In this document: one piece after another, positions 37,640 through 62,159 of the stretch
Layout of the letters: each line of letters opens with the position of its first letter
How positions within the stretch are numbered: the stretch's first letter is position 1
DNA from: an uncultured virus (IMG/VR IMGVR_UViG_3300020137_000030)
Lineage: Duplodnaviria; Heunggongvirae; Uroviricota; Caudoviricetes
IMG/VR virus record: IMGVR_UViG_3300020137_000030
Reading direction: 5' to 3' (one strand)
Length of the DNA: 64,000 bases
Translations under genes and position numbers: made by a program
Notes under the pieces: model-generated
Seen by the model: only the letters and a program-made list of their open reading frames with translations
The model's database searches: none
Told to the model about the DNA's origin: nothing

Positions 37640-37681
37640 ACCCCGCGCCGGGAACGGGCAGGTGCCGCACATAGGTAGGCT

Positions 37682-37842
37682 GCAAGGTGACCACGGGTCA
37701 CCGACACGTAGTCCGGAATGCCGTACAGGTGCAACCGCCGCCCCGTCAGGGGCGGGAGGTGCCCTACCCGGACACCCTCAACACACGCGTGAAAGTGAAG
37801 GCGAAACGCGACCGCCGGCGGCGAAGCCGCAGGTCAGGAAGT
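37682..37842 (+). ncRNA. tracrRNA-like scaffold/leader, copy 1 (abuts array 1)
   Basis: Near-identical in 4 copies; multiple hairpins; anti-repeat segments GCCGT, CCCTC, CGCGTG, GTG, GGCG. Confidence 0.7.
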
Positions 37843-38236
37843 GTCCCGCCCACGCACGCGAGGGAACGGCACTGCCCCAACTACCCGGGCGAGTGGGATG
37901 GGGGTCCCGCCCACGCACGCGAGGGAACGGCAAGGAGGAGCTCGTCGAGCAGGCCGCAGCCAAGGTCCCGCCCACGCACGCGAGGGAACGGCGGTCTCGG
38001 TGCCCGCAGTAGCCCAGCGTGCGCTGTCCCGCCCACGCACGCGAGGGAACGGCGAGCAGAACCGCGAGAAGATTGACGCCGCCCTCGTCCCGCCCACGCA
38101 CGCGAGGGAACGGCATGGCTACGCGCATCCTGGAGCAGGCAGCTGGGGTCCCGCCCACGCACGCAAGGGAACGGCCCGGCGTCAGCGACGAGGTGAAGCT
38201 CAGCGGTGGTCCCGCCCACGCGGGCGAGGCGGAGTG
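37843..38236 (+). CRISPR. CRISPR array 1: 6 repeats plus a degenerate trailer, 6 spacers of 33 nt
   Basis: GTCCCGCCCACGCACGCGAGGGAACGGC at 37843, 37904, 37965, 38026, 38087, 38148; degenerate copy at 38209. Confidence 0.95.
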
Positions 38237-38466: not shown

Positions 38467-38480
38467 TCCGGCGCATGTTG
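38467..38480 (+). promoter_or_regulatory. TCCGGCGCATGTTG motif, copy 3
   Basis: Immediately upstream of GTG 38487. Confidence 0.55.
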
Positions 38481-38486
38481 GAGGGT

Positions 38487-40001
38487 GTGAGCACCCCGAC
38501 GCCCCCACCGCCACCGCCACCGCCGCAGCGACGCCGCGCCTCCGCGCCGACGCCCGACGCCGGCAAGGCCAAGAGCGACCCGGGCGAGAAGGACCCCACG
38601 GGCGCCCCCAAGCGCAGCCGCGACGCCACCGCTCGCGCTGCGGCTGGCGTCTCCACCGCTGCGGGGCTGGCCGGCAAGGCAGGGCTGGGGCGTGTCGCGA
38701 GCGCCGCCTCCACGCTCGCCGACCCGAACGCCACCGCCGGGCAGAAGGCCACCGAGGCCGCAGCGGCCGGTGCTGAGGCCGCCGTCACGGCTGTTGTCGG
38801 TGCTGCCGCCACACCGCTCGCCGGGAAGGTCGCCGGGGCGGTCGTCGGCACCGGCCTGCGCAACAAGAAGGTCCGCAACCTCCTCGTCGCGCTGCTCATG
38901 GTGCCGCTGCTCGGGATCGGGATGCTCGTGCTCGGCACGGCCCTGCTCACGCAGCAGGTCGGTGCCCTGGTCGCCGCAGCGGCCGGTGAGGAAGAGGAGC
39001 AGGGCGGGGGAGCCGGGGGCGGTGCGGTGCCCGACGGGTACTGCTACGCGCCGGGGCCCGGCAACGAGGCCGTCCTGACCCTCACGCAGGAGCAGTCCAC
39101 CAACGCCCGCGCCATCGTCGCCGCCGTCTCGGCCCGCGACCTGGGCGCCCGAGACGCCGTCATCGCGGTGATGACCGCCCTGACGGAGAGCTCACTGATC
39201 AACGTCGCCTACGGTGACGAGGTCGGCCCGGACTCGCGCGGCCTGTTCCAGCAGCGCGACAGCTGGGGCACCCTCGAGGAGCGGATGGACCCGAGCACCG
39301 CGACGGGCCTGTTCCTGGACGCGATGCTGTCGCCGAACCTGCAGGTGTTCGGGTCGGCCCGCAAGATCAACACCTCCGAGTCCTCACGCGGCACGTTCGA
39401 GCCGTGGATGGTCGCCCAGTCCGTGCAGCGTTCCGCGTTCTCCGACGGGTCGAACTACCAGGGTCACTACTCGCAGGCCGTCGGCATCGTGCGCACCCTG
39501 CTCGGCGACGCTGCGGCGTCCGTGGTGGACCCGTGGATGCCGTCCAGCGAGGACGACCCGGAGTTCTCCGCCGGGGCGTGCTCACCCGGTGAGGGTGCCG
39601 AGCTCCCTCCGTCGGAGCGTGCCGCCGCGGCGATCGCGTTCGCGAAGGCGCAGGTCGGCAAGTCGTACGTGTGGGGTGCGGCGGGCCCGAACACGTTCGA
39701 CTGCTCGGGGCTGACGATGCGCGCCTACGAGGCGGCCGGGGTGAACATCACACGCACCACCCGCACCCAGTACGCGTGGGCGGTGAAGAACGCCCGGGTC
39801 GTCGACCTGGCCGATGCCCAGCCGGGCGACCTGATCTACTACACGTCCGACCCGACCAAGACGGACATCCAGGCGATCTACCACGTGGCCATGTACCTGG
39901 GTGACGACACGATCGTCCACGCACCCAAGCCTGGTGACGTCGTCAAGATCGCCCCGATCTACAACAAGCCGGCGCTGATGCCGCTTGCCGTGCGCCCCTG
40001 A
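38487..40001 (+). CDS. NlpC/P60 peptidoglycan hydrolase with lysozyme-like domain (conjugative VirB1/CwlT-like)
   Basis: TM helix; ESSL...DSRGLFQQR..WG; YVWGA.GP..FDCSGL; HVAMY. Confidence 0.85.
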   Translation: MSTPTPPPPPPPPQRRRASAPTPDAGKAKSDPGEKDPTGAPKRSRDATARAAAGVSTAAGLAGKAGLGRVASAASTLADPNATAGQKATEAAAAGAEAAVTAVVGAAATPLAGKVAGAVVGTGLRNKKVRNLLVALLMVPLLGIGMLVLGTALLTQQVGALVAAAAGEEEEQGGGAGGGAVPDGYCYAPGPGNEAVLTLTQEQSTNARAIVAAVSARDLGARDAVIAVMTALTESSLINVAYGDEVGPDSRGLFQQRDSWGTLEERMDPSTATGLFLDAMLSPNLQVFGSARKINTSESSRGTFEPWMVAQSVQRSAFSDGSNYQGHYSQAVGIVRTLLGDAAASVVDPWMPSSEDDPEFSAGACSPGEGAELPPSERAAAAIAFAKAQVGKSYVWGAAGPNTFDCSGLTMRAYEAAGVNITRTTRTQYAWAVKNARVVDLADAQPGDLIYYTSDPTKTDIQAIYHVAMYLGDDTIVHAPKPGDVVKIAPIYNKPALMPLAVRP

Positions 40002-40016
40002 GAGGAACCCAGCCTG

Positions 40017-40670
40017 ATGCGTACCGCCCGAACCGCCTTCGCCGTCGCCGCGGTTGTGGCTGCCACCGTGATGCTGGCGGGCTGCACCCACAGCGACGAC
40101 CCGCAGACCGAACCGACGGGCTCGTCGGTCGTCGTGCCCGGCTCGCCTGTCGACCCCGACCAGCAGACCCCGCGGGCCACCACGGCGCCGTCGTCGGCTG
40201 AACCGTCCGAGACGGCGACGACGCGCCCGCCCGTCGGGTACGCCGACGACCGGTACCGGGTCTCCACCCCCGGCCAGACCATGCCCGACCCGCCCGTGTC
40301 GGCCGACGGGACGTTCCGCTACCACGGTGAGCAGTGGCCGGTCGACGGCGTCGACACCTGGCAGGCGACCACGTCCGCGTTCGTCGCCGCAGCGGCCGAC
40401 CCCGACAGCGACCTCGACGCCTGGTTGGCGGGCCTGCGCCCGTACGTGACCGACCGGCTCCTGGACCGTCTCGCCCGAGACGACGCCCGCCCCGAGATCG
40501 CCTCCTGGGGGACGCCGAAGGTCGCCGGTGTCGAGCTGCTCGATGGCGACGTCGGCGTGCAGGTCGCCCAGGTCGACGCGGGGTCAAGCCGTTGGTCGCA
40601 GGTCGTGACGCTGTGGTTCTTCGACGACGGGACGTGGCGTGTCGACACGTGCGGGCTGTCCTGGAACTAG
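40017..40670 (+). CDS. Lipoprotein
   Basis: Lipobox LAGC. Confidence 0.7.
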   Translation: MRTARTAFAVAAVVAATVMLAGCTHSDDPQTEPTGSSVVVPGSPVDPDQQTPRATTAPSSAEPSETATTRPPVGYADDRYRVSTPGQTMPDPPVSADGTFRYHGEQWPVDGVDTWQATTSAFVAAAADPDSDLDAWLAGLRPYVTDRLLDRLARDDARPEIASWGTPKVAGVELLDGDVGVQVAQVDAGSSRWSQVVTLWFFDDGTWRVDTCGLSWN

Positions 40671-40698
40671 AAACCGGGCACTGCCGCACATACACCTT

Positions 40699-40857
40699 GC
40701 AGGTGACCACGGGTCACCGACATGTAGTCCGGAATGCCGTACAGGTGCAACCGCCGCCCTCCGGGGGCGGGAGGTGCCCTACCCGGACACCCTCAACACA
40801 CGCGTGAAAGTGAAGGCGAAACGCGACCGCCGGTGGCGAAGCCGCAGGTCAGGAAGT
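40699..40857 (+). ncRNA. tracrRNA-like scaffold/leader, copy 2
   Basis: Same sequence as copy 1 with a few changes, mostly in hairpin tips; CCGCACAT at 40684. Confidence 0.7.
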
Positions 40858-41501
40858 GTCTCGCCCACGCACACGAGGGGACGGCCCACCCCCTCTCTCA
40901 CTCGATCTGGACGAGAGTGTCTCGCCCACGCACACGAGGGGACGGCCGACGTCCTGTGGGTGCGCCGCGACGTCGACCGGTCTCGCCCACGCACACGAGG
41001 GGACGGCCAGCCCCGCGACGATGACGCCGATGACGCCGGCGTCTCGCCCACGCACACGAGGGGACGGCGTCGTCGCCACCCCGAAGGGTGTCCCGCCGTG
41101 CGTCTCGCCCACGCACACGAGGGGACGGCGTCAACGGGCGCGGGCGCACGCGCCGCCTCAACGTCTCGCCCACGCACACGAGGGGACGGCGTTGTAGGGC
41201 TCCGCCGCCGAACGCCCCGCACCGTCTCGCCCACGCACACGAGGGGACGGCGGCCGTCTACGCCGAGGTCGGCCGCCGCAAGGCGTCTCGCTCACGCACG
41301 CGAGGGAACGGCTGGGTGCTCGCGCGCGAGCTCGGGCACCTCCTGGTCCCGCCCACGCACGCGAGGGAACGGCCAACAGCTGGCCGTAGCGGCGAACGCG
41401 CCCGCCGTCCCGCCCACGCACACGCACACGAGGGGACGGCGTCCCCTGACGGCATCGACGCCACCACCGCGGAGTCTCGCCCACGCACACGAGGGGGCGT
41501 C
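40858..41501 (+). CRISPR. CRISPR array 2: 11 repeats, 10 spacers
   Basis: GTCTCGCCCACGCACACGAGGGGACGGC with 61-nt period; repeats 8-9 approach the array-1 type; repeat 10 has a 6-nt duplication. Confidence 0.95.
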
Positions 41502-41613
41502 CAGTCCGGCGGCGCAATCGTCCAGGCCCCAAGCAGCCTTGCACCACAGGCGCGGGGCTCGTCGGGCCGTGCCGCACATACACACGACGACAGCACCGAC
41601 AACGGGAGGCGAC

Positions 41614-44085
41614 GTGCACGAGCTGCGCGACTACCAGGCCGAGATCGTCCGCGACACCGTCAAGCACCTGCGCCGCAACACGCGCGCCCAGGTTCGGATG
41701 GCATGTGGGTCCGGCAAGACGCTCGTCGGCATGCGCATCCTCGAGACCCTCGTGCGCGGACGCGACCGCAGCGTCATCGTCCTGGGCTTCCCCAACCTCG
41801 CACTGCTCTCACAGACGCTGCACTACTGGCGCGAGCAGAGCACCTGGCGCACGGCTCTCGGCCGGCGGGCGTACGCGGACATCGTCGTGGGTTCCGACGT
41901 CGCCACCGGCGAGCCCGACGAGGCGGGAGACGTCGACGTCGACAGCCCGCACGACTCCCTCGCCGAGCTGGGCCTCGTCGGGCACGACATCACCATCACC
42001 ACGAGCCCGCACGCACTGGCAGACCTGATCTCCACCACACCCGGCCGGGTGGTGATCTTCTCCACCTACCAGTCCATGTCGGCTGTGGCTGCCGCAGCGC
42101 GGATGCTGCGAGAGCGCGGCGACGGCACGTTCCGCTACGACGCCGTCCTGGCAGACGAGGCGCATCGCACGGCCGGTGACGCCACGACCGACGCTTTCGC
42201 GGACGTCGTCCTCCCGCGCGCGATGCCGGTGGCCAAGCGACTGTTCATGACGGCGACCCCGCGCCACGTCGTCAGTCGACGCCGTGCGCCCGGGGTGCGG
42301 AGCATGGACAACGAGGGCCAGTACGGCAAGGTCACCGGCGACTTCCCGATGCGACGCGGAATCGACGTGGGGGTCCTGTCCGACTACCAGGTGAACGTCC
42401 TCGGCGTGAACCTCGAGGAGCTCGAGGCGGTCACCGGCGTGACCGTCCAGGTGCCCGACGGCACCGCCGGGGCGCGCTGGCTGCGTGAGAGCGCCACGGG
42501 GCGCCGGGCACACCTGGACACCGTCGCGGTCGCGGTCGCCAAGCTGGCGGCGTTCCACGGTCGCAGCCGGATCATGGTGTTCCACTCGCGCATCGACCGC
42601 TCGCGCGAGTTCATCGAGCGGCTTCAGCAGGTCGTCGCACGGATGCCGGCGCTCGCCTCGCGGCCCGTGCTGCCGGTGCACGTCGATGGCAACACCTCCG
42701 CCGACGACCGCCGCGACGTCCTGCAGCGGATGAACAACCTCGACCTCGACAAGGGGGAGTGGGCCGTCGTCTCCAACGTCGGCGTGTTCGTCGAGGGCGT
42801 CGACGTGCCGCTTCTCGACGCCGTCGTGCTGGCTGAGCCGCGTCGCTCGCCGGTCGACGTCACGCAGATCGTGGGGCGGGCACTGCGCCTGCCGCACCAC
42901 TCCCAGCGCAGCTACCACCGACCTGCAGCGATCATGGTTCCGGTGCTCGTCCTGCCCGGCCAGCACGTGGCCAGCGCGCTGCACACCGGGTCCTTCGCCA
43001 TCACCGCCGAGCTGATCCGCGTGCTGCGCATCGACGACAGCACGATCACGGACAAGTTCGTCCCCGCGATCGCACCCCGCCAGCGTCATCGAGCAAAGGC
43101 TCGCCGCAGCGAGGACGGCACGGTCTCGTTCGTGCTGGACGGCGGTCTGGTCGAGTACATCCCTGTCCCGAGCGCACAGGTGGACGCGCTCGCTCCCACC
43201 GAGTCGCAGGAGCAGGCAGTGCCTGCTGAGCGCCGCCACCCTTCGACGGGCTCGACGGCCGGCCCCATGGGGCAGGAGGACGCGGGTCGATCGCACGACG
43301 ACCCGGCTTCTGCCCCCACCACCGATCCGCCACAGACGCCCGACGTGCCCTCCCAGCCGCAGCACCCCGTCATCCTCATCGAGGAGGCGGGCGCACGCGG
43401 CGTCCTGAACGACCCGCCGCAGCCTCGCCCGCGCCAGCGTCCGAAGGTGAACCGCGTCTACTACCGGACCAGCGAGCTGGACTCCGACGGGCTCGGCTGG
43501 GTCCTGGCACTGGAGGACACGCCCACGGACCAGCGTGTTCTCGTCGACAGCGACGACCTGCGCCTGGACTCGCTGCTGCGCTCGGTGACGGTCACGGCAG
43601 CCGAGATCGCGGTGGAGCCGGACGCCCTGGTCGCGACGCGCATCGCGGAGTTCTTGAGCGTCCGGCTGCGCTGGCCCCAGGCGAAGGCTGACGACCCCGC
43701 CGAGGCGCAGTGGGGGCGTCGCCTGCGCTCGTGGCAGAAGGCTGCTGCCGACGGGGACGCGTACGGCCTGCCCGACGGCGGGACCGCCCTTCTGGACCGG
43801 ATCATCCCGGGGTGGCGTGACCTGGCGGGCACGCAGGCGCGCGAGCACCTGTTCCATCAGTCGGTCCTGACGGCCCGCGACTTCATCGCCGCGAACGGGC
43901 GCGACCCGGACCCCCGTTCGAGCGACACGGTCGAGCGCAACAGCGCGCGGTTCCTCATCCAGCAGCGCGAGTACGCGGCCAGGCCGGCAGCGCGTCGGGC
44001 TGTGCTGCTTCCGCCGGAGCGGGTCGCCATGCTGGACGAGGCGATCCCCGGGTGGAACGACAGGAAGCGCCGCAAGGCGCACTGA
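41614..44085 (+). CDS. SF2 DEAD/DEAH helicase with C-terminal helicase-associated (HA)-like repeats
   Basis: LRDYQ, ACGSGKT, DEAHR, MTATP, EGVDVP, QIVGRALR; two repeats ending LD..IPGW; GGGAGG RBS. Confidence 0.88.
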   Translation: MHELRDYQAEIVRDTVKHLRRNTRAQVRMACGSGKTLVGMRILETLVRGRDRSVIVLGFPNLALLSQTLHYWREQSTWRTALGRRAYADIVVGSDVATGEPDEAGDVDVDSPHDSLAELGLVGHDITITTSPHALADLISTTPGRVVIFSTYQSMSAVAAAARMLRERGDGTFRYDAVLADEAHRTAGDATTDAFADVVLPRAMPVAKRLFMTATPRHVVSRRRAPGVRSMDNEGQYGKVTGDFPMRRGIDVGVLSDYQVNVLGVNLEELEAVTGVTVQVPDGTAGARWLRESATGRRAHLDTVAVAVAKLAAFHGRSRIMVFHSRIDRSREFIERLQQVVARMPALASRPVLPVHVDGNTSADDRRDVLQRMNNLDLDKGEWAVVSNVGVFVEGVDVPLLDAVVLAEPRRSPVDVTQIVGRALRLPHHSQRSYHRPAAIMVPVLVLPGQHVASALHTGSFAITAELIRVLRIDDSTITDKFVPAIAPRQRHRAKARRSEDGTVSFVLDGGLVEYIPVPSAQVDALAPTESQEQAVPAERRHPSTGSTAGPMGQEDAGRSHDDPASAPTTDPPQTPDVPSQPQHPVILIEEAGARGVLNDPPQPRPRQRPKVNRVYYRTSELDSDGLGWVLALEDTPTDQRVLVDSDDLRLDSLLRSVTVTAAEIAVEPDALVATRIAEFLSVRLRWPQAKADDPAEAQWGRRLRSWQKAAADGDAYGLPDGGTALLDRIIPGWRDLAGTQAREHLFHQSVLTARDFIAANGRDPDPRSSDTVERNSARFLIQQREYAARPAARRAVLLPPERVAMLDEAIPGWNDRKRRKAH

Positions 44086-44113
44086 GTACGCCACTGCCGC
44101 ACATAGGTAGGCT

Positions 44114-44274
44114 GCAAGGTGACCACGGGTCACCGACACGTAGTCCGGAATGCCGTACAGGTGCAACCGCCGCCCCGCCAGGGGCGGGAGGTGCCCTACC
44201 CGGACACCCTCAACACACGCGTGAAAGTGAAGGCGAAACGCGACCGCCGGTGGTGAATCCGCAGGTCAGGAAGT
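44114..44274 (+). ncRNA. tracrRNA-like scaffold/leader, copy 3
   Basis: 161 nt, near-identical to copy 1; CCGCACAT at 44097. Confidence 0.7.
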
Positions 44275-44607
44275 GTTCCGCCCACGCACGCGAGGGAACG
44301 GCGGAGCCCGTCGCTGGCGCAGAACACCTGCGAGCGTTCCGCCCACGCACGCGAGGGAACGGCGGAGGCCACGATGATCCGCAACGCCCTCCACTCGTCC
44401 CGCCCACGCACGCGAGGGAACGGCGCAGGCGACGGGGGTTTTTCTCGGTGCGCTCGCGTCCCGCCCACGCACGCGAGGGAACGGCGCTCAGCGCGGTCGG
44501 GACGGTGGGGCCGCGGACGTCCCGCCCACGCACGCGAGGGAACGGCTAGGTCCTGCACGGTCGCGCCCATGCCGCCGTGGTCTCTCCCACGCACTCGAGG
44601 GAACGTC
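44275..44607 (+). CRISPR. CRISPR array 3: 6 repeats, 5 spacers (possible remnant repeat at ~44648-44680)
   Basis: Repeats at 44275, 44336, 44397, 44458, 44519, 44580. Confidence 0.95.
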
Positions 44608-44737
44608 CCCATCTGCCGCGGCACCGCCGGCACGGGCAAGCGCTGACGTCTCGCCGACCGCACATACGAGGGGGTCGGCCGACAGGTCGCGCAGGTGCTG
44701 CGGCGAGAAACCAGCGCCTGCCGCACATACCACCTGC

Positions 44738-47700
44738 ATGGACAAGACCGCCCTCGAGCCCACCCGCACCTACCACGCGACCGTCGACCTGGGCGAGAAC
44801 ACCGAAGCGTTCCTCGCGCACCACGTCGCCACCAACAACGCTGCTGGCGAGCTCGCCGGCGCGCTCAAGCACATGATCGCCACGCTCGTCCCCGCGCAGT
44901 GGGTCGAGCTCTGGGAGAACCACGCGGGCACCCCCGCCGGTGTGCGCATCGCCTCGTGGATCGCAGGATCGTGGGTCGGCACGGAGCGGTCAGACAGCGC
45001 CCCGCCGCGCACGGTCACCCACGCGCAGGCCATCGACGCCGTCCGCCGCCGCGCGGTGGAGCTGCGCCCCGGCATCGACGCCGAGCAGTTCCTCAAGGAC
45101 GCTGCCATCCTGCACGGCACCGTCCGCGACGACGCCGTGTGGGTCGACTACCTCGACGGCGACCCCGTACCCGCGATCGGGTGGGAGGGGCTCGACGTGC
45201 GGCTGCTCGGCAGCGCGAGCGAGCCGGTCAAGAGCAACGACGAGATCACCAAGCCCGGCAAGGGCGACATGGTCCAGAGCTGCTCGCGCCTGTGGGGCCG
45301 TGCAGTCGGCACCGGGCGCAAGGCGGACGGGCTCCTTCTCGTCGAGCGCAGCGCGGCGCTTCGGGACGCCGCTGCCGACCCCACGAACCGCACGGTCGCA
45401 GACGTCGCCCAGGCACTCACCGGGCAGCCGCTCGACGGCGCAGGCCTGGCCGCCTGGGCCAACCACACCAACCCGAAGTCACCCACGAAGGTCACGGCAG
45501 CCCTCGTCGGGAACGACGCCTCCGCTGACCTGTCGACCGAAGTCGCAGGCAAGACTCTCCGCGACCGGATCGTCACCGGCGCCAGCGAGGTCCACGCCAA
45601 CTGGGTCGCGCGCACCGGCGAGGCACGTCGCGCCGCCGACGGTGAGATCCTGGCTGGCACCTGGCTGCACGGCATCCTGCTGCGCCACATGGCCGCCAAC
45701 CTGACCGGCGGGGCGCGCACCAATGTCCTGTCCGCGGCGGCGAGCACCGTGGCGACCCACCGCGACCGCCTCCACAAGCAGGCCGTCGAGCTCGCCGCGC
45801 TGCAGCAGTCGCTCGCCAACGCGCTCGAGCAGGTCGACCCCGACGACCTGGCAGACCTGGACGCATGGGCACGGGCGCACCTGTACGAGAACGAGGACTC
45901 GCCCGGGTACCTCCTGCCGCGCATCCCGCGCCGCGAGGGCACCGCGAAGCTCGCGACCGTCACCAACAAGTGGCGCAACAAGCCCAAGATGGGCGTCGAG
46001 GAGCGCGTCGCCGCCGCCAAGGGGGCCGGGGCGGGCTGGACCGTCTGGTGGGACTACCTGGCCCGCAACGAGCACCTGTGGAACCCGAACACCGACCGGC
46101 TCCTGCGAGTCGTCGGCGGCGGCGACGGGTTCGCTGGTGTCCAGCCGCTGCGACGCAAGATTGCGGGAGTCCAGATGCCGACGTTCGCGCGGCCGCACCC
46201 GCAGGCCGCACCCGCCCCTTCCTACTACGGCGGTGGACGCCTGACCGGTCGGCTCGGCGCCGACGGCACGCTGGTGCTGCAGGTCGCCACCCCCGACGGA
46301 CTGGCGCGCATCAGCGCCCGGTGGATGTCGACCCGTCTGCGTGAGGCGCTCAAGGTCGGTGCGCAGGTGGTCGACGGTCAGCCGACGATCACGCGCGACG
46401 ACCCCACGTCGCGGCTGGCGGCCGGGGTCGACCAGGACACGCCGGTGAACGTCGCCGCAGACCCGACCAGCAGCACCTTCACCGTCGGGTACGACCGCGA
46501 GAACCAGCGCTGGCTCCTGGCCGTCGCGATCAAGCACCACACCCCTCGCCGCTACCTGCCTGGCGACCCCCTGCGGCTCATGGGCGTGCAGATCGGCATG
46601 AACCGGCACGACGTGACGTACGCCGTGTGGGAGACGGTCGACGGCGTCAGCGCACCCCAGGACGTCGAGGTCGCGGACGTCCACGCCGTCAACGCCCGTG
46701 GCCAGGCCACCGTACGCCGTGCCCGCCGCGTGGCCGCCACGGGGAACCTGTTCGAGTTCGCGCGGCCCGTGCGCGAGGGCAGCATCGACCTGCCCGCGGG
46801 CGACCGCGAGTCTCAGGTCGGCGAGTCGGCGCAGATCGCGGAGCTGCTGGACGACCTGCCAGTCCACGACGCCTACATCCAGGGAGAGCTCCGGCGTGTC
46901 GCACGCGACGCTGCCGTGGACCTGGGGGCGGGAACGCCGCGCTCGCAGCTGCTCCAGGCGGCGATGCGTGTGCTGAACAGGGCGTTGGACGCCCAGGGCT
47001 GCCTGGCCCGCCTGGCCGGCCAGGCACGCGGACTGGGCGAGGCAGGGCCCGACGACCTTGAGGAGCTGGAGAGCATCTGGCCCGCCACGGGCGGGGACCT
47101 GGGCGCGCTGTGGTCGCAGCGTGCCGCCACTATCGCCCGGTACGCGCGCATCGTCCGCGACGACCTCCTGACCCGCGCCCACAGCCGCCGGGTCAGCGTC
47201 GAGCGCGTCGTCGAGCTGGACGAGTTCGCACGCCTGCTCCGGCGCCTGGAGACCTGCCCGACGCCGTCACGCCCGTTCGAGCACCGCACCCTGCCGTTCG
47301 GCTTCGCCCCCACGATCCGCACCATGCGCAACCGCGCGCGGGAGGCCTGGACGGACAAGATCGCCTCGGACACCGTCAAGACGGCCCTGCGGCTCGGGGT
47401 GAGCGTCATCGCGGTGTACAAGGACGAGGACTCCACCCCCTCGCAGGTGCGTCCCGCCCACATCAACCGGCGTCTGGCCACCGAGGCGCGCCGTGCGATC
47501 GCCGACCAGATCGCCCTGGTGGCGCCGCTGCACGGCATCGAGGTCAAGGTCGTCAGCAAGGGCGTCGGCCACCGGGCGCGAGTCGTCGACGGGCGTGAGA
47601 TGTTCGCGGTCACGCCCATCACCCTGGGGGAGTTCGCCGACCTGGCCCGACGCGACACGAAGGGCGCCAAGGGGGCCATCGCGAGCTGGGACAACCGGGT

Positions 47701-48109
47701 CGTCGCCGCCGCGAACCTGCTCGCTGGCAAGGAGAAGAAGCGCAAGGGCAGGGACGGCAGGGTCTACGAGGAGAGCGCACAGCGGAAGGCCGCAAACCTC
47801 GCGGTCGCAGCCCTGACTGTCCAGGCCGGGCAGTTCCTGGACCGTGAGCTCGAGCCGGTCCTGGGCCTGAACGACCGAGCCTTCCGCACCTGGAGGTCGA
47901 GCGCAGCCGCCAGCCAGACGCTCCACCTGCCGGGCCTGTTCCCCGACGGGCAGGTGCTCGTGCCCGCCGACGCGCAGTACGAGCCGGGGACTCTCCGGTT
48001 CCGTTCCGTCAGCAGTCGCGACATCGCCATCGCCCACGCCGTCGCCCACCGAGGGTGCACCTGGGTGCTCAACCCCAAGAAGCAGAAGAAGGACGACGAG
48101 TCCGAGTAG
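44738..48109 (+). CDS. Cas12b(C2c1)-like type V effector, predicted nuclease-inactive (1123 aa)
   Basis: Flanked by arrays; size and motif order like Cas12b: PTFARPHP, RWMSTRL; RuvC-I LRLMGVQIG (D>Q618); RuvC-II VIAVY (E>Y894); INRRL..LHGIEVKVV; RuvC-III SRDIAIA (D1095). Confidence 0.72.
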   Translation: MDKTALEPTRTYHATVDLGENTEAFLAHHVATNNAAGELAGALKHMIATLVPAQWVELWENHAGTPAGVRIASWIAGSWVGTERSDSAPPRTVTHAQAIDAVRRRAVELRPGIDAEQFLKDAAILHGTVRDDAVWVDYLDGDPVPAIGWEGLDVRLLGSASEPVKSNDEITKPGKGDMVQSCSRLWGRAVGTGRKADGLLLVERSAALRDAAADPTNRTVADVAQALTGQPLDGAGLAAWANHTNPKSPTKVTAALVGNDASADLSTEVAGKTLRDRIVTGASEVHANWVARTGEARRAADGEILAGTWLHGILLRHMAANLTGGARTNVLSAAASTVATHRDRLHKQAVELAALQQSLANALEQVDPDDLADLDAWARAHLYENEDSPGYLLPRIPRREGTAKLATVTNKWRNKPKMGVEERVAAAKGAGAGWTVWWDYLARNEHLWNPNTDRLLRVVGGGDGFAGVQPLRRKIAGVQMPTFARPHPQAAPAPSYYGGGRLTGRLGADGTLVLQVATPDGLARISARWMSTRLREALKVGAQVVDGQPTITRDDPTSRLAAGVDQDTPVNVAADPTSSTFTVGYDRENQRWLLAVAIKHHTPRRYLPGDPLRLMGVQIGMNRHDVTYAVWETVDGVSAPQDVEVADVHAVNARGQATVRRARRVAATGNLFEFARPVREGSIDLPAGDRESQVGESAQIAELLDDLPVHDAYIQGELRRVARDAAVDLGAGTPRSQLLQAAMRVLNRALDAQGCLARLAGQARGLGEAGPDDLEELESIWPATGGDLGALWSQRAATIARYARIVRDDLLTRAHSRRVSVERVVELDEFARLLRRLETCPTPSRPFEHRTLPFGFAPTIRTMRNRAREAWTDKIASDTVKTALRLGVSVIAVYKDEDSTPSQVRPAHINRRLATEARRAIADQIALVAPLHGIEVKVVSKGVGHRARVVDGREMFAVTPITLGEFADLARRDTKGAKGAIASWDNRVVAAANLLAGKEKKRKGRDGRVYEESAQRKAANLAVAALTVQAGQFLDRELEPVLGLNDRAFRTWRSSAAASQTLHLPGLFPDGQVLVPADAQYEPGTLRFRSVSSRDIAIAHAVAHRGCTWVLNPKKQKKDDESE

Positions 48110-48164
48110 GCCCTCGTGCGGCACGCGGCCACGAGAACGGCCGCGTGCCGCACATAGGTAGGCT

Positions 48165-48325
48165 GCAAGGTGACCACGGGTCACCGACACGTAGTCCGGA
48201 ATGCCGTACAGGTGCAACCGCCGCCCCGCCAGGGGCGGGAGGTGCCCTACCCGGACACCCTCAACACACGCGTGAAAGTGAAGGCGAAACGCGACCGCCA
48301 GCGGCAAAACCGCAGGTCAGGAAGT
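48165..48325 (+). ncRNA. tracrRNA-like scaffold/leader, copy 4
   Basis: 161 nt, near-identical; CCGCACAT at 48148. Confidence 0.7.
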
Positions 48326-48881
48326 GTTCCGCCCACGCACGCGAGGGAACGGCGTCACATCGAAGTCCGGCACAGCCCCGCATCAGGTTCCGCCCACGCA
48401 CGCGAGGGAACGGCTCTGGGCCTGGCCCTCGTGGCCGTCGTGGCCGAGTTCCGCCCACGCACGCGAGGGAACGGCGAAGAGCGGCGTCTTGAAGATTCGA
48501 GGCCTGCGGTCCCGCCCACGCACGCGAGGGAACGGCGCGAACCGGGTGCGGATGACCCGCACCCGTGACGTCCCGCCCACGCACGCGAGGGAACGGCTCG
48601 GGGCAGTCTGGGAGGCGCGACGACGCGTGGAAGTCTCTCCCACGCACGCGAGGGAACGGCCACCTGTACGCGTGGGCGGAGGAGGCTGTCACCGTCTCTC
48701 CCACGCACGCGAGGGAACGGCGAGGTCGTCATGGAGTCCTTCGCGTCCGTCGTCGTCCCGCCCACGCACGCGAGGGAACGGCACGGTGGCCACGGGGACC
48801 TGGGTCCCGCCCACGCACACGAGGGAACGGCTCCAGTGGGCGCCGTGCCCTCGGTGCCACACGGGCCTCGCCCACGCGTCC
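48326..48881 (+). CRISPR. CRISPR array 4: 9 repeats plus a truncated trailer, 9 spacers (one 35 nt, one 21 nt)
   Basis: Repeats at 48326, 48387, 48448, 48509, 48570, 48633, 48694, 48755, 48804; partial at 48865. Confidence 0.95.
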
Positions 48882-49813
48882 TAGGGGACATCCATCCCTA
48901 GCCAGGCGGCGGACGCCGCGCGGAACGTGTCGTACTCCAACTGTTCACCGTCGAACTCCTGGTGCCCGGCGCTCAGCTCGACCAGCAGGCGCGGCCCGGC
49001 CAGCGCCTCGAAGATCGCGAACTGCCCGACGGGCGGCACGGCAGGGTCGACCCGCGCCGCCCCCACCAGGACCGGCGCCCGGACGCGGGCTGCCGCGGTG
49101 GCGGCGTCGAACCAGGCGAGCACGCCCGCGACCGACGGGTCACGCTGCGCGAGCAGGCGCACAGCCTCGCCGCTGCCGGTGCAAGGCGTGCGCAGCCGAG
49201 CCGGGTGGTTGCCGAATGTCGGGACCTTCAGCACCGCGGCGGTCACCCGCCGCTCCTGGGCAAGGGCGAGGGCTGCGAGCCCGCCGCCGAAGCTGACGCC
49301 GTGGATGTCGATGCGGCGCAGGTCAGGGTACAGGGCGTGGGCGGCTGAGACCGCGGCCCACACGCCTTGGACGCACCCGCCGATGATGTACGTCTCGCGC
49401 GAGGCGATGCCGTGCAGGACGTGCTCGGCCACGACGTCGGGCACGTCCGGCTGGACGCTCAGCGGTGCCATGCCGCGCGGGACGAGGGTCAGCTCGGCGG
49501 TGCCGGGGGAGCGCCACGGGTCGAACGGTCCGTCGACCTGGCCGTAGCCGGGAAGGTCGACGACGACACGGTCGACACCGTCGGGCGGCTCGTGCACGTA
49601 GGCGCCAACCTCGACGCCGCCCGCGCTGGTCAGCCGCAGCTCGCTCAAGGTCCACCCGCCGCCGTCGCCGGTGCGCCGCACCCTGCGGGGTGCGGGGTCC
49701 ACGTCCAGCGCCTGGGCGTACCTGCCGGCCCAGAACGCGTCGAAGTCGTCGGGCCCGGTCAGCACCTGGTCGGTGAGCTCGCCGCGCACGCTGGCGATGG
49801 CTGTCGCGTCCAT
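48881..49813 (-). CDS. Acetylxylan esterase (AXE1/CE7-like alpha/beta hydrolase)
   Basis: PDDFDAFW; nucleophile elbow GVSFGGG; DPAVPP..QFA; GH. Confidence 0.8.
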   Translation of the reverse strand: MDATAIASVRGELTDQVLTGPDDFDAFWAGRYAQALDVDPAPRRVRRTGDGGGWTLSELRLTSAGGVEVGAYVHEPPDGVDRVVVDLPGYGQVDGPFDPWRSPGTAELTLVPRGMAPLSVQPDVPDVVAEHVLHGIASRETYIIGGCVQGVWAAVSAAHALYPDLRRIDIHGVSFGGGLAALALAQERRVTAAVLKVPTFGNHPARLRTPCTGSGEAVRLLAQRDPSVAGVLAWFDAATAAARVRAPVLVGAARVDPAVPPVGQFAIFEALAGPRLLVELSAGHQEFDGEQLEYDTFRAASAAWLGMDVP

Positions 49814-50601: not shown

Positions 50602-50674
50602 GCGGATGTAGCTCAACTGGAAGAGCGCCGGTCTCCAAAACCGGTCGTTGGAGGTTCGAGTCCTCCCGTCCGTG
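50602..50674 (+). tRNA. tRNA-Trp(CCA)
   Basis: Cloverleaf; loop CT-CCA-AA. Confidence 0.9.
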
Positions 50675-50749
50675 CTTCGACCCTCGGTCACTGTGGCAGC
50701 CACGGCTGTCATACACCGCGGAGTCAACGTCCACCTTCAGGTGGTTTGA

Positions 50750-50770
50750 GAACAGCACAGAGACGAGAAG
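50750..50770. repeat. Left arm of a 21-bp inverted repeat bracketing the tRNA array (partner 56521-56541), overlapping a boxA-like sequence
   Basis: GAACAGCACAGAGACGAGAAG is the exact reverse complement of 56521-56541. Confidence 0.85.
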
Positions 50771-50990
50771 TGCCGACCGGTCGCCATACCGGTCGGCCGG
50801 TGCCGCGCGACCAGCGCCCAGGCGCACCACCGGTGAGGAACCCGCAAGGTCGGGGGAGCCGGTACGTGCCGGGGACGTCGGACGCGGGGCACCTTCCCAG
50901 CAGCGGCGACACCTTGCGCGCCCGGGCTCCGCGCACAGCGTCCCGGTCGTCCCGCAAGGGCAAGGTGGGTGTCGCCCGCTGCTGGGCCAC

Positions 50991-51072
50991 GGGTGTGTCG
51001 CGTAGCGGCTATCGCAACTGGCTGTAAACCAGTCGTCTTCGGACACCGCAGGTTCGAGTCCTGCCGCACCCA
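50991..51072 (+). tRNA. tRNA-Tyr(GTA)
   Basis: Cloverleaf with long variable arm. Confidence 0.88.
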
Positions 51073-51155
51073 CGTTCTCGCCGCCCGTCGCCCTGGGGAA
51101 GTGGCGGCGCCGGCCAGCGTCCTGCGGTTCGACTCCGCGGGCGGCGAGCACCGAC

Positions 51156-51227
51156 GCCTCGCTAGCTCAGTGGCAGAGCTGCCGCCTCTTAAGCGGAGGG
51201 TCCAAGGTTCGAGTCCTTGGCGGGGCA
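51156..51227 (+). tRNA. tRNA-Lys(CTT)
   Basis: Cloverleaf. Confidence 0.88.
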
Positions 51228-51256
51228 CCGGGGCCGCCGCACGCGGCGGACCGTCC

Positions 51257-51329
51257 AGCGGTGTAGCTCAGGTGGCAGAGCGCCCGGCTCATAACCGGTA
51301 GGTCGCGGGTTCGACCCCCGCCACCGCGA
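51257..51329 (+). tRNA. tRNA-Met/Ile2(CAT)
   Basis: Cloverleaf; CAT anticodon; identity class uncertain. Confidence 0.8.
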
Positions 51330-51356
51330 CGAGGTCGCGTCCGAGGCGACCACCCT

Positions 51357-51429
51357 GGTCCTGTAGCTCAATCGGGAGAGCGCCACCCCGTCAAGGTGGA
51401 GGTAGCCGGATCGAAACCGGTCAGGATCG
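51357..51429 (+). tRNA. tRNA-Asp(GTC)
   Basis: Cloverleaf; C at position 33. Confidence 0.8.
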
Positions 51430-51440
51430 CGCAGCACCGA

Positions 51441-51514
51441 CGGCTCGAGGCCCATCCGGTATGGGCACCTCGCTGATACCGAGGAGGCAGCAGGTTCAAC
51501 TCCTGCCGAGCCGA
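51441..51514 (+). tRNA. tRNA-Ile(GAT)
   Basis: Cloverleaf. Confidence 0.8.
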
Positions 51515-51546
51515 CGCACGACTGTCACCTCTGGTGGCAGTCCCGC

Positions 51547-51618
51547 GCACGTCTAGCTCAGCGGCAGAGCAGTCGGTCCACACCCGACCACGCGGGGGTT
51601 CGAGTCCCTCGACGTGCA
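51547..51618 (+). tRNA. tRNA-Val(CAC)
   Basis: Cloverleaf; C33. Confidence 0.8.
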
Positions 51619-51685
51619 CGACCAGCCCTGGTCGCCCAGGTTGCGCTTCCGTGGGCACAACCTGTTCTGGCCGGGGCTGGCACAC

Positions 51686-51756
51686 GCCCCACTGGTGTAG
51701 TGGCAGCACGCCTGGTTCTCAGCCAGGCAGCGGGAGTTCGATCCTCCCGTGGGGTG
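51686..51756 (+). tRNA. tRNA-Glu(CTC)
   Basis: Cloverleaf. Confidence 0.85.
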
Positions 51757-52043
51757 CTCGGAGCGGGCGACGGCTCCAACCGAACGGCTCAGCCGGGACG
51801 GCAGACGGTCGTACGGGACGAGGCCGCCAGCCTCGCTCTATGGGACCGGTACAGCCCGTGCATCCCGGTCACCAGCAGCAGCCCGGCCACTGGCGGTGGC
51901 CGCTGAGGTACGCCCGGGCATGCGCCCCGAAGGACGGCTCGGCCGGGTCTGACCCGGCGGGTCGGCCGACCGCACTGGGACAGGCGGGAACCCGCCCGTG
52001 CGGGACCGGCAGGCAGGGCTCGCCACCGGTCGACACGGGACGA

Positions 52044-52120
52044 TGCGGAGTGGGGGAGAGGCGTCCCCGCCGGGCTCATAACCCGTGAGATCGCCAGTTC
52101 GAGTCTGGCCTCCGCAACCA
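52044..52120 (+). tRNA. tRNA-fMet-like (CAT)
   Basis: GGG/CCC anticodon stem; encoded CCA. Confidence 0.8.
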
Positions 52121-52121
52121 C

Positions 52122-52218
52122 GCCCTCGTAGCGCAGCCGTAGGACAGGAAGCCTCTTCCCCGCGCGAGCGGGGGTCGTTCTCGGGAGGTTGCAGGTTCGA
52201 GTCCTGCCGGGGGCACCA
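52122..52218 (+). ncRNA. tRNA-like RNA with non-canonical anticodon region
   Basis: Acceptor stem, T-arm and CCA intact; no 7-nt anticodon loop. Confidence 0.55.
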
Positions 52219-52243
52219 GCACCACCGAGGAAGGAGGGTCGCC

Positions 52244-52570
52244 ATGTCGGCCACAACATCGGCAGCGGTCCTGCTGCCGTCCCAGCTCGAGACCCGCGGC
52301 ACCGCCGCCGTGCTCGTGCGCCACGCAGTACCCGCAGGCACCACCGACGTCGCGATCGGCGCCGTCGAGGCCGCATCAGTGTCCGCCGGGGCCGCCGACG
52401 AGATCGTCAAGCGGCTCCTGGACGCCTCCGTGCAGCGGGTCGTCCTGGTCAACCCGCAGGCCGGGGTCGAACGGTCGCTGCGTCTGGCTCTGGCCCGTCG
52501 CAGCACCCGCGACCGCACGTTCCTGCTGTCGGTCCAGCACCGCAGCGACGACGTCCTGTACCCGGCCTGA
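52244..52570 (+). CDS. Small hypothetical protein inside the tRNA array
   Basis: AAGGAGG RBS; 108 aa; codon bias. Confidence 0.6.
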   Translation: MSATTSAAVLLPSQLETRGTAAVLVRHAVPAGTTDVAIGAVEAASVSAGAADEIVKRLLDASVQRVVLVNPQAGVERSLRLALARRSTRDRTFLLSVQHRSDDVLYPA

Positions 52571-52603
52571 CCGGGTTCGCACGCCGCTTCCGGGCGGCAC
52601 CAC

Positions 52604-52690
52604 GCCCCTGTGGTGGAAGTAGGTAGACACGCCGGTCTCAGGAACCGGTGCCCGGCGACGGGCGTGCGGGTTCGACTCCCGCTCGGGGCA
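52604..52690 (+). tRNA. tRNA-Leu(CAG)
   Basis: Class II cloverleaf. Confidence 0.88.
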
Positions 52691-52844
52691 CGGGTCCACC
52701 GTGGTGGACGACGATCTTGGAAGCCGACGCGACCTCACCGTCGCCGACAGCGCCCTCCCGGGCGGGTCAGGACCCGGGGACCGAGCCGGACGGCGAGCAC
52801 CGGTAACCCGCGGCGTGCCCGGTGAGGGGTGCGGGCGCGGGCCT

Positions 52845-52921
52845 GCCCGCCTAGCTCATCTTGGTAGAGCGGCGACCTCGTAAGTCGCAGGTGCCCGGTT
52901 CGAGACCGAGGGTGGGCTCCA
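52845..52921 (+). tRNA. tRNA-Thr(CGT)
   Basis: Cloverleaf; CCA. Confidence 0.88.
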
Positions 52922-52965
52922 CGGGGTGGCCGTCGGACCGCCCCCGACCGGTTGCGGCCGGTCAT

Positions 52966-53040
52966 GCCCGGCTGGCTCAGTGGCAGAGCGCACCCTTGGT
53001 AAGGGTGAGGTCGCGGGTTCGATCCCCGCGCTGGGCTCCA
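52966..53040 (+). tRNA. tRNA-Thr(GGT)
   Basis: Cloverleaf; CCA. Confidence 0.9.
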
Positions 53041-53068
53041 CGCGTGTCGCCGGCGTCACGGGCGACGA

Positions 53069-53141
53069 GGGGCTGTAGCTCAGTCGGGAGAGCGCCGATC
53101 TGAAGAGTCGGATGTCGCTGGTTCGATCCCAGCCGGTCCCA
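53069..53141 (+). tRNA. tRNA-Phe(GAA)
   Basis: Cloverleaf. Confidence 0.88.
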
Positions 53142-53145
53142 CCTT

Positions 53146-53232
53146 GCCCTCGTGGCGGAAGCAGGTAGACGCGCTGCCTTGAGGAGGCAGTGCTCCGCGA
53201 GGAGCGTCCCGGTTCGATCCCGGGCGAGGGCA
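53146..53232 (+). tRNA. tRNA-Leu(GAG)
   Basis: Class II cloverleaf. Confidence 0.88.
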
Positions 53233-53355
53233 CGAGGCACGGTCAACGTCACCGCCGACGGTTCCCTGTTCGCCGTCGTCGGAGCGAAGGTGAGACAGCC
53301 CTGCGTGGCACCGCTGCCCGACTCCGGGGCGGTGGGTCTGGCCTGCCGTGCCCTT

Positions 53356-53428
53356 GCCCCTCTGGCCCAACAGGTAGAGGCGTCCGGCTCAAATCCGGAA
53401 TCTCCCGGTTCGACTCCGGGGAGGGGTA
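53356..53428 (+). tRNA. tRNA-Leu(CAA), short variable loop
   Basis: Loop CT-CAA-AT; lacks the long variable arm. Confidence 0.75.
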
Positions 53429-53527
53429 CGACGCGGTCAACGTCACCGACCGGGCACGATGCCCGCGCCGGAGCGAAGGGCGGCCAGACGGACCCTCCCA
53501 TGGTCCGTGCCGTACCTGCCGCGCCAT

Positions 53528-53617
53528 GGAGGGCCCAGCCGACTGGCGGCGGCACCTGCCTCGAATGCAGACTGCGGGCTTCGCGTCCGCGTGCGGGTTC
53601 GACTCCCGCGCCCTCCG
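53528..53617 (+). tRNA. tRNA-Ser(CGA)
   Basis: Class II cloverleaf; G73. Confidence 0.82.
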
Positions 53618-53772
53618 CACATCTGCGGCCACGTGCCGCACATAGGTACTTCGAGCGAGAGACCCCGCCACAGTGGTAGCGGGGCGAGCCGGGCACATGA
53701 ACCCGGCCACGACGCGGACCCGTGTCGCTCGAGTCGGTCCGAAGTCGGTGGGACTGCAGCCCGCCGGCACAT

Positions 53773-53844
53773 GGGGAGGCAGCACGATGGTGGTGCAGCT
53801 GCTTTGCAAGCAGTCGGTTGCGGGTTCGAGTCCCGTCCTCTCCA
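53773..53844 (+). tRNA. tRNA-Ala(TGC)
   Basis: Cloverleaf; G3:U70. Confidence 0.85.
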
Positions 53845-53876
53845 CGAGGCACCTCGGTGCCTGAGCAGTACCCAAC

Positions 53877-54229
<353 letters not shown>

Positions 54230-54376
54230 GTGAACCTCGAGCACGACACGCCGACCGCCCTTGCCGAGCGCGGTCAACCAGGCGGCTCGACAGACCCAAG
54301 GGCGCCCGCGGGTCTGGCATCTGGCCCGGATGCGGTCGAGGGGACCCCGATACCAGGCGATCGGGAGGGCACACCA

Positions 54377-54712: not shown

Positions 54713-54758
54713 CGCAGCCGCACGACGCGGCGTCGCAGCGCGAACCCTTGCGGCACAC

Positions 54759-54829: not shown

Positions 54830-54861
54830 CCTGCAGCCCGCGCGAGCTGCGATCGCGCCAT

Positions 54862-59765: not shown

Positions 59766-60617
59766 TCAGGCGGGTCGCACGGACTCGACCGGGGCCCGCA
59801 CGAGCCTCCCACGGTCGCGCAGGTGGACCACCACACTGGTGCGCCCGACCCTGGTGACCGGCCCCGACTCGCCGTCGTACTCGTGGCCGGGCAGGTCGAT
59901 CGTGACGGTGTCGCCCACCTTGAGCGTGACCGTCGCCTTCGGTTCCGGGTGGCGGGCGACGGCGGCAGCGACCTGCGGGTCGACGACGTTGCGGGTCCAC
60001 TCGAAGCGCCGCTCGTCGGGGGCCTGGTCGCGCGGGTGGTCTCGGTGCCCGCAGTAGCCCAGCGTGCGCTTGCGCGGCGACGGCATCCGACCCTGCGTGA
60101 CGGTGTGCCCCGACGGGCAGGTCCCCACGACCGCCGCGGTCTGGACGGTGACGTCCTGGTCGAGCCGGACCGTGGCTGTCGGGTCGGCCCCGAGACGCAG
60201 CGCGGTCGCCTGCCAGCGTGACCCGTGCCCGTCGTGCGGGCCGCACAACGCGTGGGCGACCTCGTGCAGGACCGTGTCGAGCCGCTCGGCGCCGTCCACC
60301 GCGGCCATCTTCGGCCCGGACAGGACGATCAGCCGCCGGGCGTGGTGGGTGGACCCCAGCCGGGACCCGAGCTTGGACGTGTACGCGAGCGTCCAGTCGT
60401 GCAGTCCGTGCTCGTCCATCGTCTTGCGCGCCTGCACGTACAGGGCGTCGAGCAGGTCTCCGGGTGCGACGTGCGGGTCGTCGGCGTACGGGTCGACGGC
60501 GGGTGGTTGCGCCTCGAGCGTGACGGCGGGCTCGTCGCGCGCCTTCGTGACGAACTGGCCTGCCCCGGCCCCGGGGGCACGGTTGCGCGGGTGGGCGGAC
60601 TCGACGAACGTTGCCAT
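59766..60617 (-). CDS. SprT-like zinc metalloprotease with N-terminal GQF peptide
   Basis: LHEVAHAL...GHG..W; ATG 9 nt after minus-strand CCGCACAT; target of array-1 spacer 3. Confidence 0.8.
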   Translation of the reverse strand: MATFVESAHPRNRAPGAGAGQFVTKARDEPAVTLEAQPPAVDPYADDPHVAPGDLLDALYVQARKTMDEHGLHDWTLAYTSKLGSRLGSTHHARRLIVLSGPKMAAVDGAERLDTVLHEVAHALCGPHDGHGSRWQATALRLGADPTATVRLDQDVTVQTAAVVGTCPSGHTVTQGRMPSPRKRTLGYCGHRDHPRDQAPDERRFEWTRNVVDPQVAAAVARHPEPKATVTLKVGDTVTIDLPGHEYDGESGPVTRVGRTSVVVHLRDRGRLVRAPVESVRPA

Positions 60618-62011: not shown

Positions 62012-62159
62012 GTCCCGCCCATGCGGGCGAGGGGACGGCCGCACACTAGGCGGCACGAGCAGCAGCGCCCCCGTCCCGCCCACGCGGGCGAGGGGACGGC
62101 GTCAGGGCGCGGTAGGTGGCGGTGCACGCCTGGGTCCCGCCCACGCGGCACGGGACGGG
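62012..62159 (+). CRISPR. Orphan mini-array 5: 3 repeats (last degenerate), 2 spacers, no tracr-like leader
   Basis: GTCCCGCCCAYGCGGGCGAGGGGACGGC at 62012 and 62073; degenerate at 62134; 61-nt period. Confidence 0.85.

Follow-up and report, generated by a model that had tools for sequence, protein, structure and literature searches.

The Cas12b homologue and its RuvC site

The window analyzed here, the whole 64,000-nucleotide stretch from the uncultured virus record IMGVR_UViG_3300020137_000030 (IMG/VR), carries four CRISPR arrays, each behind a predicted trans-activating CRISPR RNA (tracrRNA), together with a gene at 44738..48109 (+) whose 1123-aa product, P0001, was identified from its open reading frame (ORF) and from profile and fold matches as a nuclease-dead Cas12b homologue. 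A sequence-only reading that preceded this analysis had described the ORF as intact and free of frameshifts and had quoted several motifs in it; the frame reads through all 1123 aa with no internal stop, and the quoted motifs were all found in P0001. The GC content at third codon positions (GC3) is 0.92, as in other genes of the element. A contig over 44518-48174 was recovered in sequencing runs X1-X3, possibly the samples of origin, with 0 differing letters and 0 gaps. Contigs from the RNA run X4 cover parts of the P0001 gene and its neighbours at like depth; as DNA carry-over is possible, these provide no evidence either way on expression.

P0001 is a member of the Cas12b (type V-B) family by homology along its chain. 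Taken alone, it scored E=0.046 and 11.9 bits against the NCBIfam Cas12b model (150-bit cutoff), with no relevant Pfam match and no PDB match. A profile built from P0001 and seven relatives matched ChCas12b (9kln) at E=1.4e-70 over profile positions 6-1025 of 1068, AacCas12b at E=1.6e-28 and 5wti at E=5e-26. The AlphaFold model of P0001 has poor domain packing (predicted local distance difference test score, pLDDT, 64; predicted template modelling score, pTM, 0.47), and its best Foldseek match was ChCas12b (E=4.5e-24), which was also the top VIA match (Z=24.2), with a root-mean-square deviation of 27.9 over 846 residues. The ESM Atlas returned unnamed clusters and C2c1 clusters at 0.93-0.95, which serve as leads only.

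The canonical V-B1 RuvC triad is Asp-Glu-Asp (D-E-D), and the corresponding residues of P0001 are Q618, Y894 and D1095. Q618 (CAG, 46589..46591, +) occupies the place of the catalytic Asp in RuvC-I (Aac D570 / Ch D767) and Y894 (TAC, 47417..47419, +) that of the catalytic Glu in RuvC-II (Aac E848 / Ch E1220), while the RuvC-III Asp is kept in R1094-D1095 (48017..48022, +; GAC at 48020). In the profile alignment the Q618 column holds both AacCas12b D570 and ChCas12b D767 and the Y894 column holds AacCas12b E848, with the active-site-intact relative P0005 bridging Y894 to ChCas12b E1220 and D1095 to ChCas12b D1364; residue numbers were counted by hand on the printed alignments. The substitutions proposed by the sequence-only reading (D>Q618, E>Y894) are thereby confirmed, with non-acidic residues at the AacCas12b D570 and E848 positions, as is its retained third Asp. 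In the AlphaFold model Q618 lies within strand 613-619 and Y894 ends strand 890-894; the assignment of D1095 is by sequence alignment only, because residues 939-1123 fall below pLDDT 50. According to the available text of PMC12204704, ChCas12b D767, E1220 and D1364 correspond to AacCas12b D570, E848 and D977, and ChCas12b does not cleave as D767A or E1220A but is weakly active as D1364A (PMC12204704). P0001 has thus lost the two residues of the triad that are indispensable.

A search of 1.84 billion representative proteins yielded nine including P0001: seven near-full-length relatives and a 213-aa fragment (P0007) that was excluded from alignments. Both the RuvC-I Asp and the RuvC-II Glu are gone in P0001 and in four of the seven full-length relatives (five of eight in the family), with triads of Q/Y/D in P0001, T/S/D in P0002, H/S/D in P0003, S/A/G in P0004 and H/P/R in P0006, the third Asp also being lost in the last two. 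The same His as in P0006 occurs in four further full-length members of the P0006 cluster. P0005, P0008 and P0009 retain the D and E, and the D-E-D triad of P0005 is complete. The dead relatives are full length at 23-35% identity, and the five dead proteins make up one side of a 99/99 branch in an unrooted tree of the C-terminal half (10 rows and 574 columns, including the three catalytic columns; long branches flagged). Mean pairwise identity of the dead group is even along the chain (0.26-0.34 over 8 regions). As judged from these sequences, an inactivation of Cas12b that is lineage-wide and old, with no decay, is supported. The earlier suggestion of selected loss of cleavage over decay agrees with the five dead full-length ORFs on that one branch and with the tracrRNA and arrays kept at both readable loci, the window and the locus of P0002 (L001, the sole confirmed stretch among 148 candidates).

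Word-based protein searches for further family members returned only the query, and no relative was found in viral contigs, in GTDB genome contigs, in PLSDB plasmids (queries P0001, P0006 and P0002), in 301 sampled Actinomycetes genomes (a scan without a positive control) or in two related megaplasmids. P0005 (1069 aa, intact D-E-D, 26% identical to P0001) appears to be a compact, probably active sister; as a query it brought up nothing beyond a transposase and one canonical cas12b from Alicyclobacillus. On a plasmid of Alicyclobacillus dauci, the annotation splits cas12b (L069, 2413-5777) into two pieces that overlap.

An Arg directly precedes the third Asp position in 5/5 dead members, where P0005 and ChCas12b have Ala. 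Cas12m captures DNA via an Arg, and by analogy the Arg in the dead group, one column in a low-confidence region, could help to hold DNA.

tracrRNA modules, arrays and spacer targets

The four arrays are each headed by one of four near-identical modules of ~175 nt, composed of a promoter motif, a predicted tracrRNA and a leader, all on the plus strand. Module A (37665..37842, +; tracrRNA ~37682-37779; type I-E-like leader) precedes array A (37843..38236, +), which has 6 repeats and a degenerate last one and includes a self-matching spacer at 37993-38025. Module B (40684..40857, +; tracrRNA ~40701-40794) precedes array B (40858..41501, +; 11 repeats, 10 spacers), and module C (44097..44274, +; tracrRNA ~44114-44211) precedes array C (44275..44607, +; 6 repeats, 5 spacers), the end of which lies 130 nt before the P0001 gene. 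Downstream of the gene, module D (48148..48325, +; tracrRNA ~48165-48262; 63-nt leader) precedes array D (48326..48892, +; 9 repeats and a degenerate last one). An orphan mini-array (62012..62100, +) consists of 2 variant repeats and 1 spacer without a tracrRNA module, and a third degenerate repeat seemingly follows near 62134. The arrays have 28-nt repeats and mostly 33-nt spacers, and all 29 spacers, mini-array included, are distinct. Rfam has no family for such a module, and repeat-pattern scans gave 0 viral matches and 62 single genome matches, none an array by match count.

The predicted tracrRNA of module D runs through stem 1, stem 2, a 3-nt linker, a 5-nt anti-repeat, stem 3 and a second anti-repeat. 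The ChCas12b guide, as described in the available text of PMC12204704, begins with stem 1, a linker, a 6-bp stem 2, a 3-nt linker and a 5-bp duplex with the last five bases of the repeat, and continues with a 3-nt linker, stem 3, the closing strand of stem 2 and a second duplex. This topology with two repeat:anti-repeat duplexes was found computationally in 4/4 window modules and in the complete L001 module, compared with 0/3000 and 1/3000 shuffles and with 5/1420 genomic windows, all of them at the four modules. The L001 locus has the same layout as the window (array, ~130 nt, dead gene, module, array). Its stems and second anti-repeat differ from those of the window, and that anti-repeat pairs with the L001 repeat; stem 2 and the second repeat:anti-repeat duplex differ in sequence between the two loci yet stay paired.

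The arrays also carry traits of type I-E systems, namely the 28-nt repeat, the 33-nt spacer and the leader-repeat junction. A query of the last 16 nt of the leader and the first two bases of the repeat matched 2/251 Actinomycetes genomes, whereas the reversed control matched none. In each case the match immediately precedes the first repeat of an array with 28-nt repeats and 33-nt spacers, downstream of cas1-/cas2-like ORFs (identified by eye). That I-E repeat folds at -15.5 kcal/mol, compared with -7.1 to -7.8 kcal/mol for the three repeats here, which fold no better than shuffles. No significant cas1, cas2, cas3, cas6, Cascade or Tn7-like gene was detected among the scanned window ORFs (overlapping sets of 7, 39 and 32). 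The Cas1-Cas4 fusion and Cas2 are likewise absent at the locus, where the flanking ORFs encode a helicase, an esterase, an NlpC/P60 protein and a lipoprotein, and a PD-(D/E)XK gene 40 kb off scores far below the Cas4 cutoff.

Spacer targets were sought by comparing runs X1-X4, of which the DNA runs are labelled ant metagenome, with 37550-49000 at 90% likeness (24 of 201 loose ends displayed), and contigs in these runs match spacers and then continue into foreign sequence. The 5' flanks of five non-self targets, taken at the start of the spacer or close to it, are GAG (spacer 41069), GAG (48722), GAA (48415), GAG (37932) and CGA (40947); two further "before" rows were dropped, at 37938, which begins 6 nt into a spacer, and at 45762, where there is no spacer. 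A GAR flank, the candidate protospacer-adjacent motif (PAM), occurs in 4/5 non-self cases against a background of 0.025 each, and a T-rich flank in 0/5, in a small sample (n=5) with the pattern picked post hoc and with flanks that reflect acquisition as well as interference. Spacers 48722, 48415 and 37932 are joined on one contig with a depth of 237/710/5113 in X1/X2/X3, where the contig of the P0001 gene has 90/9/74, and spacers 41374 and 48537 match another common contig (39/21/137). Depth is a rough measure, but its shifting ratio suggests separate mobile elements. For two spacers, viral contigs contained no exact match. Arrays B and D compared by BLAST with phages, and array D with plasmids, yielded partial, chance-level matches only. 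By eye, the 48722 target spans a ribosome-binding site and start codon, and the five flank-resolved targets, three of them on one element, seem to lie on the sense strand.

The element and its neighbouring genes

The window has a GC content of 72% and holds a VirB4-like ATPase, methyltransferases and an IS200/IS605 element. One window gene has relatives only on seven plasmids from Micrococcales (Arthrobacter-, Pseudarthrobacter-, Paenarthrobacter- and Curtobacterium-type; 375-608 kb), and the element is likeliest a Micrococcales-type megaplasmid. The oligoribonuclease gene gave no host assignment (0/201 at the threshold applied). The promoter-like motif CCGCACAT is present in 34 copies (2650 to 63181) compared with 2.5 expected, exactly 9 nt before an ATG or GTG in 16/34 copies, including the copy at 44721..44728 (+), 9 nt before the P0001 start codon. 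The sequence-only reading had credited the P0001 gene with its own promoter motif; the motif is real, but it is element-wide rather than the gene's own. The 9-nt spacing is suggestive of leaderless transcription that depends on a sigma factor specific to the element.

A superfamily 2 (SF2) helicase gene (ResIII/Helicase_C; 41614..44085, +) lies between arrays B and C and is a possible neighbour only. The VirB4-like AAA_10 ORF (7270-11589) has a LAGLIDADG match and a weak intein-related match and probably contains an intein. A DinG/YoaA-like helicase gene (14443-16803, -) is located 21 kb from the arrays, with no Csf4 among the best five of eight families. The IS200/IS605 element (29885-31695) encodes a Y1 transposase and TnpB, and DNA methyltransferases and a type III-like restriction-modification pair occur at 12741-14174, 32490-37105, 58812-59744 and 61028-61990. 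A tRNA array at 50602-56511 comprises 34 tRNAs and a transfer-messenger RNA (tag AKSDFSLTA).

Proposed mechanism, related systems and alternatives

It is likely that the P0001 system acts through RNA-guided binding of PAM-flanked DNA of rival elements, obstructing them without cutting, and that its spacers come from a type I-E Cas1-Cas2 in trans. It would constitute a plasmid-borne, adaptation-less type V-B system in which the effector binds DNA and does not cut it. Each module would be expressed as a single transcript of tracrRNA, leader and array, in which the tracrRNA would pair with the last 11-12 nt of the repeat in two short duplexes and host RNases would trim the guide. The complex would then find a purine-rich PAM (~5'-GAR), form an R-loop and stay bound, blocking the transcription or replication of rival phages or plasmids in the manner of Cas12m, while type I-E Cas1-Cas2 acting in trans would add spacers at the borrowed leader-repeat junction, as in type IV-A3.

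The closest described system is Cas12b3 (V-B3), an inactivated Cas12b on a conjugative plasmid of Actinomyces sp. with type IV-B nearby and a mini-array, for which the available text suggests interference without cleavage as "possibly" (Makarova et al. 2025, PMC12669027, Extended Data Fig. 7). P0001 likewise has substituted RuvC-I and RuvC-II residues. Its setting, which may or may not be an actinobacterial conjugative plasmid, includes a gene with Micrococcales plasmid relatives (375-608 kb) and a VirB4-like AAA_10 gene, at 72% GC. Where V-B3 is described with a mini-array, there are here four arrays of 5-10 spacers, each with a tracrRNA and an I-E-like leader, in addition to the orphan mini-array, and no type IV-B genes among the scanned ORFs of the window, which covers 64 of the contig's 248 kb. 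The comparison is with a text description of V-B3 that, as available, gives no tracrRNA, PAM or targets, and the V-B3 data could already include this family or its repeats; the P0001 system may or may not be V-B3. As V-B3 has already been named, the novelty of the dead site itself is lowered. In a literature search that had most subscription papers outside it, there was no report of a natural dead Cas12b with a tracrRNA, a I-E graft, targets or a PAM; the sole account found of an inactivated Cas12b was the V-B3 extended-data figure, and the hybrid RNA architecture is new within that search. The inactivated branches listed in the available text of PMC10691335 are Cas12a, k, f, m and V-U, with Cas12b not among them.

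The V-B1 nucleases (ChCas12b, PDB 9KLN-9KLQ; AacCas12b, 5U30-5U34 and 5WQE) resemble P0001 in domain order, fold and the third catalytic Asp, and the predicted tracrRNA, like theirs, has three stems, 3-nt linkers and two duplexes between repeat and anti-repeat, the second of 5 bp. Unlike them, P0001 is without the first Asp and the Glu and is shorter (1123 aa vs 1496 in ChCas12b), and its locus has no Cas1-Cas4 fusion or Cas2 nearby, a 28-nt I-E-like repeat and an inferred purine-rich rather than T-rich PAM. The Cas12m (V-M) effectors are tracrRNA-independent. They have a dead RuvC, as does P0001, but are of separate origin, span ~600 aa in PDB rows and match the P0001 model weakly in structure (E ~3e-4). 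Plasmid repression without cleavage has been described for Cas12m with its dead RuvC (PMC10691335, available text). In type IV-A3, the host I-E Cas1-Cas2 supplies spacers in trans and the interference PAM fits the I-E acquisition motif AAG, according to the available text of bioRxiv 10.1101/2023.06.23.546257. The IV-A3 systems, as described there (Benz et al.), are also plasmid-borne and without a nuclease or adaptation module, but employ a class 1 multi-subunit complex with DinG, whereas here a single class 2 protein is combined with a tracrRNA. Type I-E itself differs in its Cascade and cas3, neither of which occurs among the scanned window ORFs, and in its repeat hairpin, which is weakened here. 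P0001 is not a canonical V-B1 nuclease; its mode of action is probably that of Cas12m, combined with spacer acquisition along the lines of IV-A3.

It should be noted that several points weigh against the proposed mechanism. The topology rule was written after both loci had been inspected, the covariation involves two loci only, and the I-E leader link comes from two genomes only. The window covers 64 of the contig's 248 kb, and cas1/cas2 or a partner may lie in the other 184 kb. The candidate PAM derives from only five flanks, with three of the four GAR cases on one element, a CGA misfit and 3 mismatches at the 5' end of the spacer in the 37932 case, and the targeted elements are abundant in the same samples. 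A sense-strand bias, expected for a transcription roadblock, was not significant (18/28 spacers in the window, 6/11 in L001, 24/39 pooled, p=0.10), and with strand calls made by a codon model (leave-one-gene-out accuracy 451/547) the by-eye impression of sense-strand spacers was set aside. Finally, the self-match of spacer 37993 was rejected as proof of a dead nuclease: its GGT flank is without the putative PAM, and because of this the self-match is uninformative on whether a dead nuclease makes it harmless.

Among the alternatives, it is unlikely that the dead Cas12b serves a partner such as the SF2 helicase, a nuclease or a transposase as its RNA-guided means of targeting, comparable to CasDinG in type IV-A or to Cas12k in CRISPR-associated transposons (CAST). 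Both readable loci have a neighbour bearing a related Trp-repeat C-terminal region (window 41614-44085 and L001 4569-5465, BLASTP E=7e-8), which in the window forms a helicase fusion between two modules, and V-B3 lies near type IV-B (PMC12669027, available text). The L001 neighbour, however, is without the helicase part and has no NCBIfam match, and no match to tnsB, tnsC or tniQ, the Cas12k CAST neighbours, was found among the scanned window ORFs or in the one other clear ORF of L001. SF2 helicases of this kind are common on actinomycete plasmids, which also counts against a partner.

A TldR-like regulator of element or host genes, for which the arrays would provide regulatory guides, appears quite unlikely. 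One of the 29 window spacers (37993) has a 33/33 match (60038..60070, +) antisense inside a SprT-like gene of the element itself (minus strand, 60617 to 59766) that has the element promoter motif, but the 5' flank of this self-match is GGT and not GAR, so the spacer may be inert for want of a PAM. Further, at least five other spacers match elements of independently varying depth, and the arrays are multi-spacer, non-redundant and leader-bearing.

Persistent cleavage by a rearranged active site (K895-D896-E897-D898, D625 and D1095) is very improbable. For TnpB/Cas12, RuvC-II rearrangements with probable retention of activity have been described (PMC10691335, available text), D1095 and D625 are present, and acids follow the Glu position in P0002 and P0003. 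Against this, the RuvC-I Asp is gone in all five dead members, with four different residues in its place, P0004 and P0006 are without both the third Asp and the acidic patch, and D625 is common to P0001 and P0005. The sequence-only reading had allowed that KDED could stand in for the lost Glu; this is not upheld, as the site is without an acid in two of the dead members and the model gives the loop low confidence. The dead group has no acidic column of its own, so KDED is no conserved substitute.

The arrays could instead serve a host type I-E Cascade, with the dead Cas12b only protecting or sequestering guides or binding RNA. Resemblance to I-E extends to the repeat, the length of the spacers, the end of the leader and the purine-rich flank; the weakened repeat hairpin (-7.1 to -7.8 vs -15.5 kcal/mol) and the repeat 3' end changed to pair with the tracrRNA make this highly improbable. 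A decaying remnant of an active Cas12b system would fit the lack of adaptation genes among the scanned window ORFs, but is scarcely credible beside the even conservation of five full-length ORFs (23-35% identity), the GC3 of 0.92 in the P0001 gene, a covarying tracrRNA and spacers that match co-occurring elements.

Binding without cutting by the P0001 system may be part of a larger scheme, which is put forward tentatively and with somewhat less than even confidence. The dead Cas12b lineage would have grafted its tracrRNA on to a type I-E leader and repeat, reshaping the 3' end of the repeat for pairing with the tracrRNA, weakening the Cas6 hairpin and shifting from a T-rich to a purine-rich PAM. 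Host I-E Cas1-Cas2 acting in trans would then program a class 2 silencer made of one protein, by way of self-contained, duplicable modules of promoter, tracrRNA, leader and array, as a class 2 counterpart of type IV-A3. The locus supplies an effector, a predicted tracrRNA with boundaries, a repeat, a candidate PAM and natural targets. Should the scheme be true, a class 2 effector has re-tuned its repeat, leader and PAM for class 1 adaptation machinery, and genes of high-GC bacteria could be silenced with a Cas12b that is by nature non-cutting and has a purine-rich PAM.

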